From an uncultured Acidobacteriota bacterium (GTDB lineage Bacteria; Acidobacteriota; Thermoanaerobaculia; Multivoradales; UBA5704), in NCBI GenBank assembly GCA_963700145.1, contig OY969474.1, forward strand, positions 448,001 to 512,000: a DNA stretch of 64,000 nucleotides, written 5' to 3'. The translations under genes and the position numbers were made by a program. Of the stretch, positions 22,720 to 33,771 are shown one piece after another. Every line of letters starts with the position of its first letter. The stretch's first letter is position 1. Under the pieces are notes generated by a model. It did no database searches. It was given only the letters and a program-made list of their open reading frames with translations, and had not been told where the DNA came from.

Positions 22720-22811
22720 GCCCCCGCCCAGATCCTTCGCTGCGCTCAGGATGACATGGCCGGACGTCATCCTGAGCGGAGCGCAGCGAAGCGAAGGATC
22801 TGGGCGGGGGC
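22720..22811. repeat. REP-like palindromic repeat, copy 1
   Basis: CCCCCGCCCAGATCCTTCGCT..CTCAGGATGAC / GTCATCCTGAGC..GCGAAGGATCTGGGCGGGGG. Confidence 0.85.
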
Positions 22812-22812
22812 G

Positions 22813-24315
22813 TCAATTCACGTCACCTCTTCCACCCCCAGTCCGCCGCGGCTTCAGGAGCTGGAACTTGATCATCTCCTTGTAGCTCACCTGGCTGTCG
22901 AGGTCGTGGCGGGCGAGCTTCAAGTGCTGGTGGAGGCCTTCGAGGACCATCTCGGCCGCCCAGGCCTGCTCTTCGCGCGCCTTGCCGCCGCCGTAGCGGG
23001 CGGCCAGGTCCCAGAGGCCCGGCACGCGCTTGAGCTCCCGCTCGTAGTCGGCGAAGGGCTGCTCGTCGGCGATCGTCACCTCGTTGCCCTCGGCGAACCA
23101 GCGGACGATCGGCGCGTAGGGCCCGCGGTCGTCCTCGCCGCCGCTCCCCACCTCCTTGGTCACTTCCGGGAAGCGCCCCTCGAAGAGCTTCTTGACTGCC
23201 TGGCCGATCAGCCGCCGCGCCACCACCTCCGCACCCTGCTGCTCCCCCTCGTAGACCATCTCCACCTTGCCGGTGATCGCCGGCAGCAGCATCTGGAAGT
23301 CGCAGAGGCGCGGCGTCACCGGCCGGTCGCCGGTGCCGAGCGCGCGCCGCTCGAGGTTTGAGACCAGCAGCTCCATCGCCGAGATCGAGACCCGCGCCGA
23401 GACCCCCGAGGACTGGTCCACGAGGTCGCTCTCGCGCGCCGCGAAGCCGATCTCCTCGATCAGCAGCCGCGCCTCCTCGGGGATCGACACCCCCGGCTGG
23501 TCGCGCTCGGTCCAGGCCTCCTGGCGGGTGATGTCCGCGGCCACCTCGCGGCTCGGCGGGTAGTGGGTGAGGATCTGCGACGAGATGCGGTCCTTGAGCG
23601 GGGTGATGATCGAGCCGCGGTTGGTGTAGTCCTCCGGGTTGGCCGAGAAGACCATCAGCAGGTCGAGCGGGATGCGCACCGGGAAGCCGCGGATCTGGAG
23701 GTCGCGCTCCTCGAGCAGGTTGAACAGGCCGACCTGGATGCGCGGCGCCAGGTCGGGCAGCTCGTTGATGGCGAAGATGCCGCGGTTGGTGCGCGGCACG
23801 ATGCCGAAGTGGATGACCTCCGGGTCGGCGAAGGTGAGGCGGCGGGTGGCGGCCTTGATCGGGTCGATGTCGCCCAGCAGGTCGGCGATCGAGACGTCCG
23901 GCGTCGCCAGCTTCTCGTTGTAGCGCTCCTCCCGCCCCATCCAGTCGACCGGCGCCTCGTCGCCGGCCTCGGCCACGATGCGCTTGCCGTGGGTCGAGAT
24001 CGGCGCCAGCGGGTCGTCGTTGAGCTCGGTGCCGGCGAGGACAGGGACCGCCTCGTCGAGCAGGGTGACGAGCGCGCGCAGGATGCGCGTCTTGGCTTGT
24101 CCGCGCAGCCCCAGGAGGATGAAGTCATGCTCGGCGAGCAGGGCGTTGACCACGCCCGGGATCACCGTGCGGTCGTAGCCCAGGATGCCGGGGAAGAGCG
24201 GGCCGCCGGCGGCGAGGCGGGCGCGCAGGTTGTCGCGCAGCTCGCGCTTGACGGTGCGCGGGCGGTAGCCGGAGGCCCTGAGCTCTCCGAGCGTCGTGGG
24301 ACGGCGGTTCGACAT
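22813..24315 (-). CDS. Mg-chelatase-like AAA+ ATPase
   Basis: GLRGQAKTR Walker A, FAINELPDL Walker B, SANPEDYTNRG; start MSNRR overlaps trxB stop (TGATG). Confidence 0.88.
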   Translation of the reverse strand: MSNRRPTTLGELRASGYRPRTVKRELRDNLRARLAAGGPLFPGILGYDRTVIPGVVNALLAEHDFILLGLRGQAKTRILRALVTLLDEAVPVLAGTELNDDPLAPISTHGKRIVAEAGDEAPVDWMGREERYNEKLATPDVSIADLLGDIDPIKAATRRLTFADPEVIHFGIVPRTNRGIFAINELPDLAPRIQVGLFNLLEERDLQIRGFPVRIPLDLLMVFSANPEDYTNRGSIITPLKDRISSQILTHYPPSREVAADITRQEAWTERDQPGVSIPEEARLLIEEIGFAARESDLVDQSSGVSARVSISAMELLVSNLERRALGTGDRPVTPRLCDFQMLLPAITGKVEMVYEGEQQGAEVVARRLIGQAVKKLFEGRFPEVTKEVGSGGEDDRGPYAPIVRWFAEGNEVTIADEQPFADYERELKRVPGLWDLAARYGGGKAREEQAWAAEMVLEGLHQHLKLARHDLDSQVSYKEMIKFQLLKPRRTGGGRGDVN

Positions 24316-25271
24316 CAGTCGTGCTGCTCCTCGAGCCAGCGCTCGGCGTCGATCGCCGCGCGGCAGCCGGTGCCGGCGGCGGTCACCGCCTGGCGGTAGA
24401 TCGAATCGGCGGCGTCGCCGGAAGCGAAGACGCCGGGGACGTTGGTGCGGGTGGAGGGCTCCTGCACCCGGATGTAGCCGACCTCGTTCATCTCCAGCTT
24501 GCCGCGGAAGATGTCGGTGTTCGGCTTGTGGCCGATGGCGAGGAAGACGCCCTGGGTCGGAAACTCGCTGTCCTCGCCGGTCTTGCGGTTGTGCAGCTTT
24601 ACGGCCACGACCCCGCCCTCGCGGCTCCCCAGGATGTCGGTCATCAGGCTGTTCCAGATCCAGGAGATCTTGGGGTTGGCGAAGGCGCGGTCCTGCATGA
24701 TCTTCGAGGCCCGCAGCTCGTCGCGGCGGTGGATGACCGTCACCTTGCTGGCGAACTTGGTGAGGTAGGTCGCCTCCTCCATCGCCGAGTCGCCGCCGCC
24801 GATGACGACGATCTCCTTGTCGCGGAAGAAGAAGCCGTCGCAGGTGGCGCAGGCCGAGACGCCGTAGCCCATGAGCTCGGCCTCGGCGCGCAGCCCCATG
24901 AGCTTGGCCGTGGCGCCGGTGGCGATGATCACGGCGCCGGCGCGGTAGGTCGCCTCGTCGGTGCGGACGGTGAAGGGGCGGCGGTCGAAGTCCACCTCGA
25001 CCACCTGCTCCCACTTCGACAGCGCCCCGAAGCGGCGCGCCTGGTCGCGCATCTTCTCCATCAGCTCGGGGCCCATGATCCCTTCGGGGAAGCCGGGGTA
25101 GTTCTCGACGTCGGTCGTGATCGTGAGCTGCCCGCCCGGCTGGTTGCCTTCGAGCACCAGCGGCGCCAGGTCGGCGCGGGCGGCGTAGAGCGCCGCAGTC
25201 AGCCCGGCCGGGCCGGAGCCGAGGACGACGACGCGGTGATAGGGAGGGGACTGCGGCTCGGCGCTGGCCAT
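24315..25271 (-). CDS. trxB: Thioredoxin reductase
   Basis: [25 protein letters not shown] redox motif, [15 protein letters not shown]. Confidence 0.96.
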
Positions 25272-25475
25272 CGAGAGAGTGGTGCCTCCTGGGGGCTGGT
25301 GTGGGTGCGCGGGGCCGGGAGGACCGCCCGAACGGCCCGCCGGCAGTATACCAGCGGGGTTCGCGGCCCTCGGGCCCTCATCCTGCAACAGAAGGAGCCG
25401 GCGGCGCTCTTCCAGCGCGCCGTAGAATGGGCGCACGCGGCCGACCCGGCCGCCGCGCAGGGAGGGAGACGAGAG

Positions 25476-26003
25476 ATGCTCGCAAGCCAGAAGCTGATCG
25501 ACGCGTTCAACGGCCAGATCGGCCACGAGATGGGGGCCTCGCTCCAGTACGTGGCGCTGGCCAGCTACTTCGACGCCGAGGTGCTGCCGCAGCTCGCCCA
25601 GTTCTTCTACCGCCAGTCCGAGGAGGAGCGCGACCACGCGATGAAGTTCGTCAAGTTCATCGTCGACGTCGGCGGCCGGGTGGACATCCCCGAGATCCCG
25701 CGCGCCCGCTGCGACTTCGCCTCGGCCGAGGAGGCCGTGCAGCTCGCGGTGGACTGGGAGAAGCAGGTGACGCAGCAGATCTACGACCTGCTGGAGCTGG
25801 CGGTCAAGGAGAAGAACCACATCGCCCGCCGCTTCCTCGACTGGTTCGTCGACGAGCAGCTCGAGGAGGTGACGACGATGACGTCACTGGTCGCCATCAT
25901 CCAACGCGCCGGCAAGGAGCGCTTGATCCTCGTCGAAGACTACCTGGCCCGCGGCGGCGCCAGGAGCCTAGAGAGCCCCGCTGCGCCGGGCGGTGAGACC
26001 TAA
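25476..26003 (+). CDS. Ferritin (non-heme)
   Basis: [29 protein letters not shown] ferroxidase residues. Confidence 0.9.
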
Positions 26004-26062
26004 CGTCGGATGCAGCCAGGGGCCGGCAGCCCTCAGGAGCTCGTCCTGCGAGAACGAGCGGC

Positions 26063-26091
26063 TTGCAGGGCTCGCGCTTTTCGGCTATACC
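26063..26091 (+). promoter_or_regulatory. Putative sigma70 promoter of the retron (TTGCAG-17 bp-TATACC)
   Basis: Correctly spaced -35/-10-like hexamers immediately 5' of the ncRNA inverted repeat. Confidence 0.55.
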
Positions 26092-26092
26092 T

Positions 26093-26241
26093 GGGGTTGG
26101 CACTTGGCGGCGAGCCCAGAATTGAGTTCTGCTGGCGATCCGTCAGCGGCTTATTGGGTGTTTAGCTTTACAGGTTCGCTGAGCGAGGCTCGGTGGGCGC
26201 GCTACAAGGTAGAATTTCGCCCGTCGCCAAGTGCTTACCCC
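26093..26241 (+). ncRNA. Retron msr-msd non-coding RNA (predicted)
   Basis: Terminal inverted repeat GGGGTTGGCACTTGGCGGCG (26093-26112) / CGTCGCCAAGTGCTTACCCC (26222-26241); two short msr-like hairpins (26117-26131, 26131-26147); longer hairpin 26174-26198; directly upstream of a retron RT. Confidence 0.75.
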
Positions 26242-26281
26242 CGACTCGTCGACTTTAATCGTTGAACCTCGTGGGTTGGCC

Positions 26282-27889
26282 ATGCCTGTCTCTCTCATTG
26301 TCCCTGGACCCCCGGACGAGCTTAAGACGCGGTTCCTTACTCTCCGCACAATACGAGATGTGGCCCGCCTTTTGATGATCACTGAGGAGCATCTCAACTA
26401 TCTCGCATACTATCGACGCAAGGGGAAGTATCGCACCTTCACTGTTAAGAAGAGGCGGGGTGGCAGACGGACCTTGGCTGAACCATTCCCTCCACTTAAA
26501 CTACTGCAAAAGCGACTACTGAGCGTGCTCAGCCACGTCTATAAGCCACGATCTGCTGTGCATGGCTTCACGTCTGGCCGAAGCATCGCCAAAAATGCGC
26601 AGAAGCACGCCGGACGACGTCTCGTCCTGAACCTTGACCTTCTGGACTTTTTCCCTTCCGTAAACTTCGGGCGCGTTCGCGGCATGCTACTAGCTAAGCC
26701 GTACCTCTTGGGCGGGCCAGCTGCAACAGTGCTTGCCCAGTTGTGCTGTTACAAGAATAGCCTTCCACAGGGAGCACCGACATCGCCGATAATCTCGAAT
26801 ATGATTTGTAGAGGCCTCGATCGAGAGCTTGAGCTTCTGGCGCGAAAAGTACGATGCACGTATACCCGCTATGCGGACGACTTGACGTTCTCTACTGATG
26901 AAGCTCAATTTCGGCATGAGCTGATAGCTGATTCTCACGCGGAGCCTGTCGTACTGGGGGCAAGGCTGCGGTCTGCCATTGAGTCACATGGCTTCCAGAT
27001 CAATGAAGGGAAGATCCGAATTCAGAGTCAAGCGCAGCGGCAGGAAGTTACAGGTCTTACAGTGAACTCCAAGCCAAATGTCCAACGCCACTATATTCGC
27101 AGAACCCGCGCAATGCTGCATGCTTGGGAGAAGTATGGCCACGATGCCGCGGAGCGAGTTTTTATTGCGAACGACACGAAGGACAGGGGCCCCTATCACC
27201 AACGGCCGAAGTTCGGTCGGGTCGTTAAGGGAAGGCTAGACTTCCTGGCGATGGTCAGGGGGAACGACGATGCGGTCTATCTCAAGTTCATCAAGCAATA
27301 CGCAGCATTGAACCCTTCCTATCGACCTCTGCCCGTCGAGCAACAGCGCCCACGGCACCTTAAGACCTACCGCGACGCGATTTGGGTGCTTGAGGGCGAA
27401 AGTCAAGGAACAGCTTTCGAACTTGAAGGCTATGGGCTCATCAGCTGCGATCACGTAGTCGGCGGGCAGATGCAGGTATACCGTCCTGGTCGTCCCGAAG
27501 TACGTTATCCTGTGGAAATTCTCGCGAGAGACAGAGAGCTGGATGTCGCCGTCCTGCGTTTCGGCGGCGAGGGCGGTTTTCTCCTGAAGCGGTCGCTGGC
27601 AGGAGTAAGCCAAGGGACTCCTGTGAAGTTACTCGGATGCCCCCAGCATTCGACGGGAAGCAGCCTCTATGAGGAATTAGGGTCTGTGGCGGGTATTCGT
27701 AGACACATGCAGCAGGAGCGCATTCTGGTGACTATGAGGATCGTTGCGGGCTCCAGCGGCAGCCCAGTTATTGATTCATCTGGTAGAGTCATCGGAATCG
27801 CTGCGACTGGGGACGACAAATTCGAGGAGGAGCGAGCGGTTCAGTATGGTGTGATTCCTATCGGTACACTCGACAAGTTGGCTGTCTAG
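26282..27889 (+). CDS. Retron-type reverse transcriptase fused to C-terminal trypsin-like serine protease
   Basis: RT motifs LDLLDFFPS, LPQGAPTSP, YTRYADDLTFS; retron signatures NAQKH and VTGL; protease triad CDHV / LDVAVL / GSSGSP; visibly lower GC than flanks. Confidence 0.92.
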   Translation: MPVSLIVPGPPDELKTRFLTLRTIRDVARLLMITEEHLNYLAYYRRKGKYRTFTVKKRRGGRRTLAEPFPPLKLLQKRLLSVLSHVYKPRSAVHGFTSGRSIAKNAQKHAGRRLVLNLDLLDFFPSVNFGRVRGMLLAKPYLLGGPAATVLAQLCCYKNSLPQGAPTSPIISNMICRGLDRELELLARKVRCTYTRYADDLTFSTDEAQFRHELIADSHAEPVVLGARLRSAIESHGFQINEGKIRIQSQAQRQEVTGLTVNSKPNVQRHYIRRTRAMLHAWEKYGHDAAERVFIANDTKDRGPYHQRPKFGRVVKGRLDFLAMVRGNDDAVYLKFIKQYAALNPSYRPLPVEQQRPRHLKTYRDAIWVLEGESQGTAFELEGYGLISCDHVVGGQMQVYRPGRPEVRYPVEILARDRELDVAVLRFGGEGGFLLKRSLAGVSQGTPVKLLGCPQHSTGSSLYEELGSVAGIRRHMQQERILVTMRIVAGSSGSPVIDSSGRVIGIAATGDDKFEEERAVQYGVIPIGTLDKLAV

Positions 27890-27895
27890 GTCCCT

Positions 27896-28090
27896 ATGTC
27901 GACCAGGTTCAAGAGCGGCACACCACGCGAGTGTTCGCGCGAGGTCATCCATCTAAGCGCCTCTTACCTTCAGGCGGTAGAGCAGCTGGAGGCGCGGCCG
28001 GAGAACCAGAGCGGCGCTGACAAGACCTGGGTGGAGCGGGCGCTCCGGGAGTTCCGGGAGCACTACGCTAAAGCCGTACGGGTACGCTGA
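27896..28090 (+). CDS. Small hypothetical helical protein (64 aa), possible antitoxin/partner of downstream NTase
   Basis: Fills the gap with 6-nt and 5-nt spacers between RT and NTase; no motif recognised. Confidence 0.5.
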   Translation: MSTRFKSGTPRECSREVIHLSASYLQAVEQLEARPENQSGADKTWVERALREFREHYAKAVRVR

Positions 28091-28095
28091 ACGGA

Positions 28096-28608
28096 GTGGA
28101 TCCGTTCCTTCAGCTCGTTGCTTCACTCCGCGCTTCCGGAGTGCGGTTCGTGATCATCGGGGTGGCGGGCGCGAATTACTACGCCGGCTCCGGTTCGACC
28201 CTCTTCGTCACCCAGGACCGTGATCTCCTGCTTCCTCTCGATCCGGACAACCTCCTGCGCGCTTGGCAGTGCTGCCGCGACTCCGGACTGAACCTGTGGG
28301 GGGATGACGAGCCGCTCGGTGATCCGCTCGACCTCGACTTCGCCCGACGCGTCGTGGAACGCCGGGCCGCTACGCGAGCAACCGACGCCTACGGTCTGGA
28401 GATCGATCTCACCCCTGTGATGGCTGGCTTCACCTTCGAGGAGGTCTGGAGCGAGCGGCGGACTTTCCTGGTCGAGGGAGTCGAGATCCCGGTGGCCCGT
28501 GTCAAGCACATTGTGCAGTCCAAAGCGGCGGCAGGGCGCGACAAGGATCGCCTCTTCCTTGCCACGCACGAGGAACGGCTGCGAGCTCTAATGGACGACG
28601 ATGGCTGA
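28096..28608 (+). CDS. Pol-beta-superfamily nucleotidyltransferase (DUF6036/AbiEii-like)
   Basis: FVIIG..A, TQDRDL, EIDL, K..AGRDKD motifs. Confidence 0.78.
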   Translation: MDPFLQLVASLRASGVRFVIIGVAGANYYAGSGSTLFVTQDRDLLLPLDPDNLLRAWQCCRDSGLNLWGDDEPLGDPLDLDFARRVVERRAATRATDAYGLEIDLTPVMAGFTFEEVWSERRTFLVEGVEIPVARVKHIVQSKAAAGRDKDRLFLATHEERLRALMDDDG

Positions 28609-28661
28609 GTAAGCCGCCGTGGACAGCGTCAGCGAGCTGGCGAAGAGGTAAGGAGCTCGCT

Positions 28662-28901
28662 CTATACGGCGACGCGCACGTGCTCGCGCAGGAACTCGGG
28701 CGCGAAGTCCGCACCGTTCTCCCAGGCCAGGGTGTGGTACGCGAGCGTGAACTGCTTGAACAGCTCGATGTCACGGAGGGGACCGAAGACCGGCCCCTCG
28801 AGCTCGGCGCTCAGGTCTACCTCGCCGCAGGTGCCGTCGTTGAACCGCAGCCAGACCGTGTAGTCGCGAACGTAGTGGGCATCTTCTACGTGCAGGAACA
28901 T
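28662..28901 (-). CDS. DUF2442 family protein
   Basis: Y.VWLRFNDG..GEVDL...L.GPVF.PL.D...F, W.NGADFAPEFL. Confidence 0.85.
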   Translation of the reverse strand: MFLHVEDAHYVRDYTVWLRFNDGTCGEVDLSAELEGPVFGPLRDIELFKQFTLAYHTLAWENGADFAPEFLREHVRVAV

Positions 28902-28963
28902 TCTCTACTCCAGCGACGCGATGGGTCGAGGGAAAGCCTCTGCTGGCGAACTACCGCTGAAGC

Positions 28964-29344
28964 TCAGAGCCGATGCGCTCCGTCCAGCTTCCCAAGGTCG
29001 CGGTCGAACGTGCCGAGCGGCAGGTGGCCCGCTTTGCGGGCGATTTCCAGGACCAAGCAGTCAGAGAATCCCAGCGCCGGCCTCCTCCGATAGTGCGCGA
29101 GCGCCGCTGTGACGGCGTCGGCATCCTGGAGTGTCAGGTCGTTATGATCGAGGAACATCTCGACTGCAGTTCCGATCTCCGCGGTGCCCAGCCCGTAGGT
29201 GGTCGAGAGTACCCAGATCGTTTCCGCGAGCACGAGGTGGGAGACCCAGGCCCCCTTGGCGACGAATTCCTCCGCCGCGGCCATCTGCTTGGCATCGTCG
29301 GCCGTGGCGAGGCGGACCAGGACATTGGTGTCAACGGCGCGCAT
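28964..29344 (-). CDS. vapC: VapC-like PIN domain toxin
   Basis: AVDTNVLVR, VLAE, FSDCL, TFD PIN acidic residues. Confidence 0.9.
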   Translation of the reverse strand: MRAVDTNVLVRLATADDAKQMAAAEEFVAKGAWVSHLVLAETIWVLSTTYGLGTAEIGTAVEMFLDHNDLTLQDADAVTAALAHYRRRPALGFSDCLVLEIARKAGHLPLGTFDRDLGKLDGAHRL

Positions 29345-29594
29345 GCCGCTTCCGCACGTACTGCCGGATTCCCTCCTTGAGCTCTTCGAGGCTCCGCGGC
29401 GGCGGCGGGCCGTCAGGGAACAGGGCCGCGTGGATATCTTCGAAGGTGTAGCGCCCCGACCGGCGCACCACGACCGCGTCCCCCTCTTCATCCCATTCGA
29501 GGACGGAGCCCGGGCCGACTCCGAGCTTGCGGCGGACCTCGGCCGGAACGGATATCTGCCCCTGTGCGGTGAGCTTTGAACGCGCGAGTGCCAT
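29331..29594 (-). CDS. vapB: AbrB/MazE/SpoVT-family antitoxin (VapB)
   Basis: SKLTAQGQISVPAEVRRKLG..PG swapped-hairpin motif; overlaps vapC start. Confidence 0.9.
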   Translation of the reverse strand: MALARSKLTAQGQISVPAEVRRKLGVGPGSVLEWDEEGDAVVVRRSGRYTFEDIHAALFPDGPPPPRSLEELKEGIRQYVRKRHARR

Positions 29595-29602
29595 ACCCTC
29601 TA

Positions 29603-29618
29603 CATTACCACGGTAATG
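29603..29618. promoter_or_regulatory. Putative vapBC autoregulatory operator CATTACC-AC-GGTAATG
   Basis: Perfect 7-bp inverted repeat overlapping a TAATGT -10 box, 7 nt upstream of the vapB ATG. Confidence 0.7.
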
Positions 29619-29657
29619 AAAGAGCCGTCAGGCGTCTAGAACGGCCGCCGCGACGGT

Positions 29658-30188
29658 TCAGCGGCAGTTGCGGCCGTACGTGCGGACGTGCACGTCGAGG
29701 GTGCCGGCGCGGTCTTTTTCCAAGAGCGCTTCGAGGAGCGGGTAGGTGTCGGGGGACTTCTCGGCCTTGAGCGCCTGGTAGGCCCGCAACGTGCCCTGGA
29801 GACCGGCGACTAAGGTCTCGGTCTGGCCGGGGCCCGTGCCGGGGTTCTGGATGAGGTAGGCGGCCCCCGAATAGGCGTGCTGCATCGTCAGGTCGCGGGG
29901 CAGCTCCTTGGTCACCGCCTCCTTGGTCGTGCCGAAGAGGCTCAGGCAGTACTTGACCGTTAGGTCGGGGATCTCGCCGAGCCAGGTGTCCAGCCACTGC
30001 CGGGCCTGCGCCGCTTCCGGGGAGGCGGGCGCGGTCTCGAGGACGCGCACCAGCTCGACCGCCTTGGCGCGCTCTTCAGGGGTGGAGGGACCGCGCTTCG
30101 CCGGGGGTTGCGCCGTCGCCGGCGCCGCGGAAAGGAGGAGGAGTGTAAGGACGGAGGCTAGGAGCGAGAGCTTCGCGGGATGCATCAT
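29658..30188 (-). CDS. Secreted hypothetical protein
   Basis: Sec signal ending APATA-Q; host-like codon usage. Confidence 0.7.
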   Translation of the reverse strand: MMHPAKLSLLASVLTLLLLSAAPATAQPPAKRGPSTPEERAKAVELVRVLETAPASPEAAQARQWLDTWLGEIPDLTVKYCLSLFGTTKEAVTKELPRDLTMQHAYSGAAYLIQNPGTGPGQTETLVAGLQGTLRAYQALKAEKSPDTYPLLEALLEKDRAGTLDVHVRTYGRNCR

Positions 30189-33168: not shown

Positions 33169-33174
33169 CTTCTG

Positions 33175-33771
33175 CTTGCTGCGGACGTTCCGGTGTGGGG
33201 TCCCGCAGGCTCTCCTCCGCGCCGGGCGCTCCTTTGTGTCCGCGCTTCGCGTGCTGGTACAGGGGTGGGTTGCCGGCAAACACGGCGGTGGCTTCGGTGC
33301 CTCGCACGGTGGACTGCGAGGGGGGCGGACGGAGCGCCCGGCGCTCCAGAGATCCTGCGGGCCCTAGAACCGGTGGTGGAGCCACTGCAATGTGGGTGGC
33401 CATCCCGAGCGCCCTCCTTGTCATCCCGAGCGTGAGCGAGGGATCTGGGGGTAGGGTGGCGCGAAGATTCACCAGCATCGCGCCGCCCCCCACCCAGATC
33501 CTTCGCTCTCGCTCAGGATGACAAGGAGGGGGGGTTGCCCCTGTTTTTGCCGGACGTCACTTCAGAGTGTCGAGTCATGGCGCCGCGTGATGTGCCGGGC
33601 CAGAGGCCCGCGAAAGCGTCGCGTTCGGGTGAAGTCACCACCAACGTCCGCGAACGGAGCCGACCTGGCTCTGTCGCCGCTACCGGTCCTGATCTGGAAC
33701 CGCGAAGCGGCGCGACTCTTTCACGGGCCGGGTGGCCCGGCATCTCACGCGGCACTATCCGCCCCGCGCGG
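33175..33771 (+). repeat. Composite hairpin element (modules A + REP + C), copy 1
   Basis: Colinear, similar inverted copy at 52139-52691; three nested long inverted repeats; REP core at 33412-33530. Confidence 0.85.

Follow-up and report, generated by a model that had tools for sequence, protein, structure and literature searches.

An intact additional member of the type XI retrons, with a predicted non-coding RNA, on an acquired cassette of an uncultured Acidobacteriota bacterium

Is a gene that joins a reverse transcriptase (RT) to a serine protease the protein half of a retron, and if so, is a retron non-coding RNA (ncRNA) located beside it? This question is raised by a locus of an uncultured Acidobacteriota bacterium (GenBank assembly GCA_963700145.1), which lies in a stretch of 64,000 nucleotides of contig OY969474.1 (positions 448,001 to 512,000 of the forward strand). 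This whole stretch is called the window in the following, and all positions refer to it. A first-pass annotation of the letters had proposed a complete retron of type XI, in which an RT with retron motifs is fused to an intact trypsin-like protease and which is situated behind its own promoter and a structured leader in a patch of low GC content. The analysis described here supports most of this proposal. The locus is very probably a canonical type XI retron with an ncRNA that is predicted to be functional, and the ncRNA belongs to a family that is also found upstream of related RT genes.

The RT-protease gene is encoded on the plus strand and extends from a GTG at 26231 or an ATG at 26282 to 27889. 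The ATG was taken as the start because the closest homologue (P0002) shares the same N-terminal residues; from this codon the open reading frame (ORF) encodes 535 amino acids. Translation placed all motifs where they had been expected: the retron motif NAxxH occurs as NAQKH (residues 105–109, nt 26594), the catalytic YADD of the RT comprises residues 197–200 (nt 26870), and the second retron motif, VTG, comprises residues 256–258 (nt 27047). Within the same ORF, Pfam identified a Trypsin_2 domain (residues 376–506), whose triad is composed of His391 in CDHV (nt 27452), Asp421 in LDVAVL (nt 27542) and Ser492 in GSSGSP (nt 27755). In a protein alignment of 25 sequences, the members of which are 41–66% identical to the window protein, the residues N105, H109, D199, D200, V256, T257, G258, H391, D421 and S492 are unchanged in 25 of 25. 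When 5.8 billion proteins were searched for homologues, 8000 candidates were scored, 6622 of them with E ≤ 1e-10. RVT_1 and Trypsin_2 occurred on one polypeptide in all 120 homologues among the matches listed, and among these the nearest one is 65% identical.

The predicted structure agrees with these assignments. An AlphaFold2 model calculated from the 25-sequence alignment reached a mean predicted local distance difference test (pLDDT) score of 88.5 and a predicted template modeling (pTM) score of 0.80; the linker between the two domains (residues ~351–360) is the least confident internal stretch (block mean pLDDT 60). The best solved relative by sequence is the retron Eco2/Ec67 (E = 6.4e-61), which is also the top match in Foldseek (E = 2e-28, 353 columns, 35% identity, covering the first ~350 residues of the model). 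The top 17 Foldseek matches listed are retron RTs. The C-terminal domain resembles DegQ, DegS, DegP and MarP (root-mean-square deviation 3.2–3.6 Å over about 185–190 columns), and in a sequence alignment the three triad motifs line up with the corresponding motifs of Deg1. The homologues, the invariant residues, the predicted fold and the Deg1 alignment together show that the fusion of the RT to a protease with an intact triad, as claimed in the first-pass annotation, is real.

With DegP, DegQ, DegS, Deg1 and MarP, the C-terminal domain thus has in common the chymotrypsin fold with its His-Asp-Ser triad and the motif contexts of the triad. It differs from these proteins in being part of a cytoplasmic protein, in its fusion to an RT, and in its sequence, with an identity of just 16–23%. 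HtrA proteins additionally carry at least one C-terminal PDZ domain; no PDZ domain was found in the window protein by the Pfam scan at E ≤ 0.1, and the protein stops 29 residues past the protease domain. According to the model, the protease domain is therefore HtrA-like in its fold, yet it is not a member of the HtrA family in the usual sense.

The assignment to type XI made in the first-pass annotation is borne out by profile searches. The PADLOC model RT-Protease_XI matches nearly over its full length (profile positions 3–507 of 510, E = 7.7e-167), and PADLOC lists this family as 'single gene'. The matches of the next models, RT-TIR_XII and RT-Toprim_I-C, are limited to the RT part; all three models belong to clade 8 according to the table of Mestre et al. 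RT-Toprim_I-C and the NCBIfam model for Ec67 cover residues ~20–374 only, and the C-terminus of the window protein is a protease, so that the C-terminal TOPRIM nuclease which defines type I-C is missing in the PADLOC and NCBIfam searches. In NCBIfam, no model scored above its own cut-off; the protein is situated between the named families, with the best scores for TIR-retron (9e-112), Ec67 (5e-101) and St85 (2e-59). The class itself is populous and was already defined by Mestre et al. (2020, NAR, PMC7736814), who describe its members as RTs of clade 8 to which a trypsin-like protease is fused. From this description the window protein differs in nothing. The profile is matched over its full length, and the locus is an intact additional member of the class.

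Upstream of the gene, the elements of a retron ncRNA were found in their expected order (Table 1). No inverted repeat near the gene is stronger than that of the outer a1 and a2 arms (23 nt each, 83% complementary). This repeat closes the minimum free energy fold of the plus strand (26085–26250, −78.1 kcal/mol, z = −4.36), and none of 200 shuffled sequences folded as well, while the fold of the opposite strand gave z = −2.93. The start codon lies 41 nt past the end of a2. Between the arms, an inner helix is followed by G26124 at the branch position, by the msr hairpin, which covaries among related loci, by the box AGCTTTAC, by a hairpin that is presumed to be the msd, and by the box AAGGTAGAAT, which leads into a2. 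The first of these boxes may be the region where reverse transcription stops, which is one guess. The structured leader noticed earlier thus corresponds to a predicted ncRNA of the retron type at 26093–26241. Searching 24000–30000 against Rfam at a permissive threshold yielded only chance-level matches to miRNAs and snoRNAs (E ≥ 2).

Conservation of this structure was analyzed in related loci gathered from genome and metagenome contigs, and each upstream region was searched independently for its best long-range stem. Averaged over 37 distinct upstream regions of type XI loci, the best stem scored 35.4, in comparison to 22.8 for a coding stretch of the same genes and 24.3 for dinucleotide shuffles, and 23 of the 37 regions outscored all 20 of their own shuffles. 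In 29 of 37 regions the stem ended between −45 and +15 nt of the N-terminus of the RT and spanned 120–200 nt. The sequences of the a1 and a2 arms vary from locus to locus, and the plan is shared: variable outer arms enclose an inner helix (usually ATT/AAT), an unpaired nucleotide, a hairpin with a GAUCC-like loop, the GCUUUAYG box, a hairpin of variable length and sequence, and an AAAGnAGAAU box continuing into a2.

MAFFT alone left the a1/a2 arms out of register, and RNAalifold recovered from that alignment, unaided, the msr hairpin only, with compensatory changes at four of five pairs. In the covariance model R1 (31 sequences), the inner helix was therefore entered by hand and makes up the structure together with the msr hairpin. 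Run on both strands of the window and of 97 loci (477 kb), R1 yielded 77 matches at E ≤ 1. All of them are located on the strand of the RT, one per locus, immediately upstream of the RT gene, and the 64-kb window contains a single one. Of the 37 type XI loci for which 200 nt or more of upstream sequence was present, 34 were matched, 30 of those matched being seed sequences; non-seed loci with upstream sequence were matched in 47 of 54 cases. Two of the four RT-protease loci on plasmids of isolates also gave a match (Pseudoalteromonas, 2e-6; Pseudomonas luteola, 0.006).

In the alignment derived with R1, 86.7% of the structure cells pair (shuffled 70.1%) and the covariation score is 0.589 (shuffled 0.265; reached by 0 of 500 shuffles), whereby these pair counts stem from Infernal alignments that are fitted to the model and favor its structure. 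If the partner is slid by one to three columns, pairing falls to 36–56%. Over 75 sequences, the msr hairpin is paired to 97.6% and the inner helix to 75.7%, each with compensatory changes at four of five pairs. Two further analyses point in the same direction. When mutual information was calculated for every pair of columns in an unbiased scan, the pairs of the msr hairpin and of the inner helix ranked highest. Single folds had suggested another option, in which the ATTG box pairs with a CAAT-like box behind the first hairpin; this option received no support from the scan and was rejected. Furthermore, the a1 arm of each locus was paired with the a2 arms of other loci, which needs no alignment. 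The duplex of a locus with its own a2 has a mean of −28.6 kcal/mol, as opposed to −12.6 kcal/mol with foreign a2 arms; the own a2 is the best partner in 54 of 74 loci and ranks within the best 5% in 69 of 74. For the window, the values are −41.7 kcal/mol with its own a2 and −17.3 kcal/mol with the a2 of 73 other loci (rank 0).

A further model, R2, was built without the window and found 26115–26221 on the plus strand as its sole match in the window at E ≤ 10 (22.8 bits, E = 0.026). The score is low because the msd of the window is ~27 positions shorter than the consensus. Judged by these models, the ncRNA of the window is a divergent but recognizable member of the family.

Related RT genes from many phyla, RT-Toprim and RT-TIR fusions among them, are preceded by the same ncRNA architecture. 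All 28 full-length RTs that have the ncRNA and lack the protease are assigned best to RT-Toprim_I-C by PADLOC (best E = 2e-198). Pfam identified a TIR domain in two of these 28 RTs (alignment A5), and a trypsin remnant, GGDEF, TPR and Mrr_cat in one each; as the ORFs of A5 were read from stop to stop, such C-terminal domains may include the frame of a neighboring gene. In a quick maximum-likelihood tree of RT domains (97 rows), the window groups with the protease-bearing RTs L103 and L118 (Shimodaira-Hasegawa-like approximate likelihood ratio test, SH-aLRT, 80). This group is part of an ingroup of types XI, I-C and XII, which a branch with 95% SH-aLRT parts from the other retron RTs of related genomes; like the best PADLOC models, this placement in the quick tree agrees with an RT of clade 8. 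The protease label is clustered on the tree without being monophyletic (11 changes, 29.8 when shuffled), and the number of changes is inflated because some of the rows with another C-terminus are truncated contigs or frameshifted copies. The picture suggested by these sequences is one RT–ncRNA core with exchangeable C-terminal effectors.

Several loci of this collection carry interrupted genes. At L001, L020, L054, L055 and other metagenome loci, RT-protease genes that are full-length in tblastn are broken into shorter frames by frameshifts, stops or assembly errors, and the ncRNA is still detected upstream of them. On the E. coli plasmid NZ_CP019281.1 (L134, 1342–2971), an RT and a TIR protein are annotated as overlapping coding sequences (1342–2079 and 2048–2971), which look like a single RT-TIR retron gene of type XII that a frameshift has divided; upstream of this gene the ncRNA model found no match.

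The limits of the element were obtained from related genomes. Genomes of the same genus match the flanks at 94–97%, and in three of them (G001, G002 and G004) the homology ends at 25988, which is the end of a ferritin gene. One of these, G004, represents an empty site: it matches the flank at 96% up to 25988 and again from 27965 on, and 82 bp of unrelated sequence separate the two parts there. In another genome (G003), the homology ends at 26009 and resumes at 28963, and 26010–28962 is wholly absent. The 1,976 bp unique to the window hold nothing besides the ncRNA and the gene. Because genomes of the same genus with matching flanks lack 25989–27964, the ncRNA and the gene were acquired as one cassette of ~2 kb. 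The low GC content that had been noticed earlier also holds (0.53–0.59 across 26000–28000, 0.65–0.78 in the flanks). At the ends of the cassette, no target-site duplication was found beyond a 7-nt repeat, and no integrase, transposase or recombinase is encoded within it.

The RT-protease is rare among close relatives of the organism: it was found in one of 40 related genomes (same family, 37% identity) and in none of the four genomes of the same genus. Full-length relatives are present on four plasmids of cultured bacteria, where they are annotated just as 'reverse transcriptase domain-containing protein'. The phage collection contained no full-length RT-protease; the best match covered 73% and came from an unannotated 6-kb contig. 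On the plasmids of Pseudomonas luteola (L130) and Shewanella (L133), a recombinase or integrase gene adjoins the retron, in L130 also a replication initiator. The cassette of the window differs from both, since it has no recombinase or integrase gene.

Upstream of the cassette, thioredoxin reductase and ferritin are encoded. Downstream follow two ORFs without a family, then genes for DUF2442, for a PIN toxin and an antitoxin of the MazE type, and for a SpoIIE phosphatase. As the cassette boundary at 27965 falls inside the 64-aa ORF, the first ~23 codons of this ORF derive from the insert and the rest is resident; G004 retains a homologue of 27965–28186 only. The DUF2442 and PIN/MazE genes beside the retron constitute a small accessory islet, whose GC content is lower (0.64–0.68). 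Within 1.6 kb of 44 RT-protease loci, no family of flanking ORFs was shared by three or more loci; where two loci shared one, their contigs were near-duplicates. The system is thus stand-alone and consists of the ncRNA and one gene, without a conserved partner gene. Two other elements of the window, of ~215 bp (~33174–33388) and ~40–90 bp (~22720–22810), occur in dozens of copies with about 80–100% identity in genomes of the same genus; they are spread over many contigs and look like dispersed intergenic repeats of the REP/MITE type (repetitive extragenic palindromes or miniature inverted-repeat transposable elements).

Table 1. Positions of the predicted retron, its parts and the adjoining genes in the window.
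Feature	Position	Strand	Remarks
Acquired retron cassette	25989–27964		1,976 bp; flank comparison with same-genus genomes
Predicted retron ncRNA (msr-msd), outer a1 to outer a2	26093–26241	+	inverted repeat, fold, covariance models
a1 outer arm	26093–26115	+	pairs with 26219–26241
a1 inner helix GAATT	26119–26123	+	pairs with 26213–26217; in alignment A4, pairs 5–9 / 233–237
Candidate branching (priming) guanosine	26124	+	unpaired, directly 3' of the a1/a2 stem; putative role, from its position
msr hairpin	26129–26149	+	stem 26129–26136 / 26142–26149, loop GATCC 26137–26141
AGCTTTAC box between msr and msd	26164–26171	+	consensus GCUUUAYG in alignments
Short variable hairpin, presumed msd stem-loop (msDNA template)	26174–26198	+	centroid fold; putative
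3' box AAGGTAGAAT	26206–26215	+	directly 5' of and overlapping a2; consensus AAAGnAGAAU
a2 outer arm	26219–26241	+	inverted repeat, fold, partner swap
RT-protease gene	26282–27889	+	535 aa plus stop
Reverse transcriptase domain	26447–27064	+	residues 56–261; Pfam RVT_1, 2.4e-18
HtrA/Deg-like serine protease domain	27407–27799	+	residues 376–506; Pfam Trypsin_2, 1.3e-16
64-aa ORF	27896–28090	+	no Pfam or PADLOC family
170-aa ORF	28096–28608	+	no Pfam or PADLOC family
DUF2442 gene and PIN-domain toxin with MazE/AbrB-type antitoxin	28665–29594	−	adjoin the retron

For type XI, the literature gives an uneven account of the ncRNA. In their passages on the class, Mestre et al. (2020, PMC7736814) describe it as 'lacking recognizable ncRNA modules', and cleavage of peptides is a speculation there. 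Toro (2026), who uses NAxxH and VTG as the motifs that define retron RTs, names type XI as one of those for which a validated msr/msd model is lacking and reports ncRNA candidates for two XI-like lineages only, both of them protease-less, as first computational evidence in type XI. On the other hand, the experimentally validated ncRNAs of Khan et al. (2024) are stated to include 'clade 8, type XI', which may be the same structure as the one described here or another. The criteria for an ncRNA given by these authors (an inverted repeat of more than 8 bp, a priming G and hairpins nearby) fit the ncRNA of the window. Judging from those parts of the literature, the conserved ncRNA predicted here is defined for the protease-bearing form, in contrast to none in Mestre et al. 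(2020) and to the protease-less lineages of Toro (2026). A search of the literature retrieved no defense phenotype, trigger or substrate for any type XI retron, and papers beyond the searched literature are possible.

The closest solved relative by sequence and fold, Eco2/Ec67 (type I-C1; cryo-electron microscopy structures 9lm3, 9i2f and 9s1f), offers a model of how such a protein could function. According to the description of Eco2 (PMC12916289), its multicopy single-stranded DNA (msDNA) cages the fused TOPRIM domain; after degradation of the msDNA by the phage protein DenB, the nuclease is set free and cuts tRNAs. Like the locus of the window, Eco2 is a minimal retron of one ncRNA and one RT-effector fusion protein, and loci of the RT-Toprim type close to the RT of the window carry the same ncRNA family. 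The two differ in their effector, which is a TOPRIM nuclease in Eco2 and a protease here, and the sole annotated Ec67-family plasmid gene that was tested (L133, Shewanella) gave no match to the ncRNA model. Formation of trimers, caging by msDNA, the DenB trigger and tRNA cleavage are, as far as these sources report, established for Eco2 only.

By analogy, the following mechanism can be proposed for the window, to which we assign a probability somewhat below an even chance. As in retrons generally, the RT would prime from the 2'-OH of G26124 and would copy the msd segment into a short msDNA, which would stay bound to the protein. This complex might hold the fused protease inactive until a phage disturbs or degrades the msDNA; the protease, once freed, could then cut cellular or possibly phage proteins and so cause abortive infection. 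If the a1/a2 layout, the ATT-G branch site, the msr hairpin and the AGAAU box are indeed shared, type XI retrons would work like Eco2. A wider version of this proposal appears doubtful as a whole: type XI and the RT-Toprim and RT-TIR retrons of clade 8 would share an RT–ncRNA chassis, which in type XI would gate an HtrA-like protease by DNA until phage attack on the msDNA frees it to cut host proteins, and the whole would travel as a self-sufficient mobile cassette without a recombinase of its own.

A number of observations weigh against reading the locus as a type XI retron with a protease caged by msDNA. Beside the bias of the fitted pair counts mentioned above, the nucleotide at the branching position is not universally G: of 31 loci, 20 carry a G, 8 an A and 3 a T. 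R1 missed three of the 37 type XI loci with upstream sequence, and it found no match at the plasmid loci of Bacillus and Haematobacter or at the RT-protease L118 from a genome of the same family. By its R2 score, the ncRNA of the window is a weak member of the family and has an unusually short msd; the scan of the whole genome with R2 returned nothing at E ≤ 1, which is expected at 22.8 bits. Both sites reported by the sigma-70 scan (26764 and 26777) are situated inside the ORF, and none precedes the ncRNA. The promoter assumed in the first-pass annotation was therefore not recovered: a −35/−10-like pair at 26063 can be seen by eye, is weak and fails the criteria of the scan. Finally, defense-associated trypsin-like proteases are reported to activate in many cases a separate latent effector, and none is encoded here.

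The last point leads to the alternative that has to be taken most seriously, although it is improbable: the protease would not be a general toxin, and its site-specific cleavage would activate a latent effector encoded elsewhere, as in modules linked to Hachiman, Avs and CBASS (cyclic-oligonucleotide-based anti-phage signaling systems). Recent reports (10.1101/2025.11.14.688446, PMC12799240) describe trypsin-like defense proteases which activate pro-nucleases, hydrolases of the metallo-beta-lactamase (MBL) fold and other latent effectors, and the first of them counts an St85-like retron among the sensors. Protease-effector defense modules (trypsin-MBL, nuclease-protease pairs, gasdermin/CARD proteases) resemble the window protein in that a trypsin-like protease is likewise the output of an anti-phage sensor. 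As described, however, these modules carry the substrate gene next to the protease and co-evolving with it, whereas the comparison of the 44 loci revealed no conserved neighbor, nothing but ncRNA and gene is contained in the moved cassette, and the family is a 'single gene' entry in PADLOC. Since a conserved partner gene is missing, this explanation becomes less likely. Slightly less probable still is an action of the protease in cis, for maturation or for release of the RT, or on phage proteins, so that immunity would be reached without killing of the host. The low confidence of the linker (residues ~351–360, pLDDT 60) would be compatible with it; indirect evidence against it is that characterized retrons including Eco2 are described as acting by abortive infection via a toxic effector.

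That the element is decaying or has no role in defense, its upstream structure being a leader for transcription or translation and not a template for msDNA, is considerably more improbable. The low ncRNA score, the missing promoter and a sequencing-run search that listed no RNA run with the locus (the best DNA run holds 0.38 of the words) fit such a view. They are opposed by a frame of 535 codons that is open with all catalytic residues intact in a family of 41–66% identity, by a1/a2 arms that are near-perfect and specific for the locus, by the presence of all conserved boxes and of the hairpin, and by a cassette free of integrase and transposase. Practically negligible is, in the end, the probability that the RT belongs to group II introns, diversity-generating retroelements (DGR), abortive infection (Abi) systems or defense-associated RTs (DRT) and merely lies beside an unrelated protease. 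The first-pass annotation had named clustering with group II intron, DGR or Abi RTs as an outcome that would speak against its proposal, and this outcome did not occur. The match to the NCBIfam group II intron RT/maturase model is weak (4.6e-12) and far under its cut-off, those to Drt2 and Drt3a are weak as well, and in the same database the retron models reach 1e-59 to 1e-112, so that the RT sides with the retrons. With the PADLOC models included (1e-59 to 1e-167), with NAxxH and VTG present and invariant, with retron RTs as the nearest structures and with both domains on one polypeptide in the homologues listed, an identity of the group II intron, DGR, Abi or DRT type was ruled out.

It is therefore the type XI retron with its predicted ncRNA, and among the mechanisms, tentatively, the protease caged by msDNA and released by phage, that we retain for the locus. 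The definition of the class is left unchanged by it. What is added here is, on the one hand, a family-wide model of the ncRNA for canonical type XI, which is supported by covariation in the aligned sequences and appears to be common to the neighboring RT-Toprim and RT-TIR retrons, and on the other hand the exact boundaries of the cassette, which are given by the empty site in a sister genome. The locus thus provides a clean, minimal and intact example of type XI with exact boundaries. By naming a candidate branching G, an msr hairpin and an msd, the ncRNA model makes a search for the msDNA precise. It also suggests that the results obtained for Eco2 may carry over to protease-bearing retrons. 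If this is true, a protease gated by a nucleic acid would be a new type of control of an abortive-infection effector.

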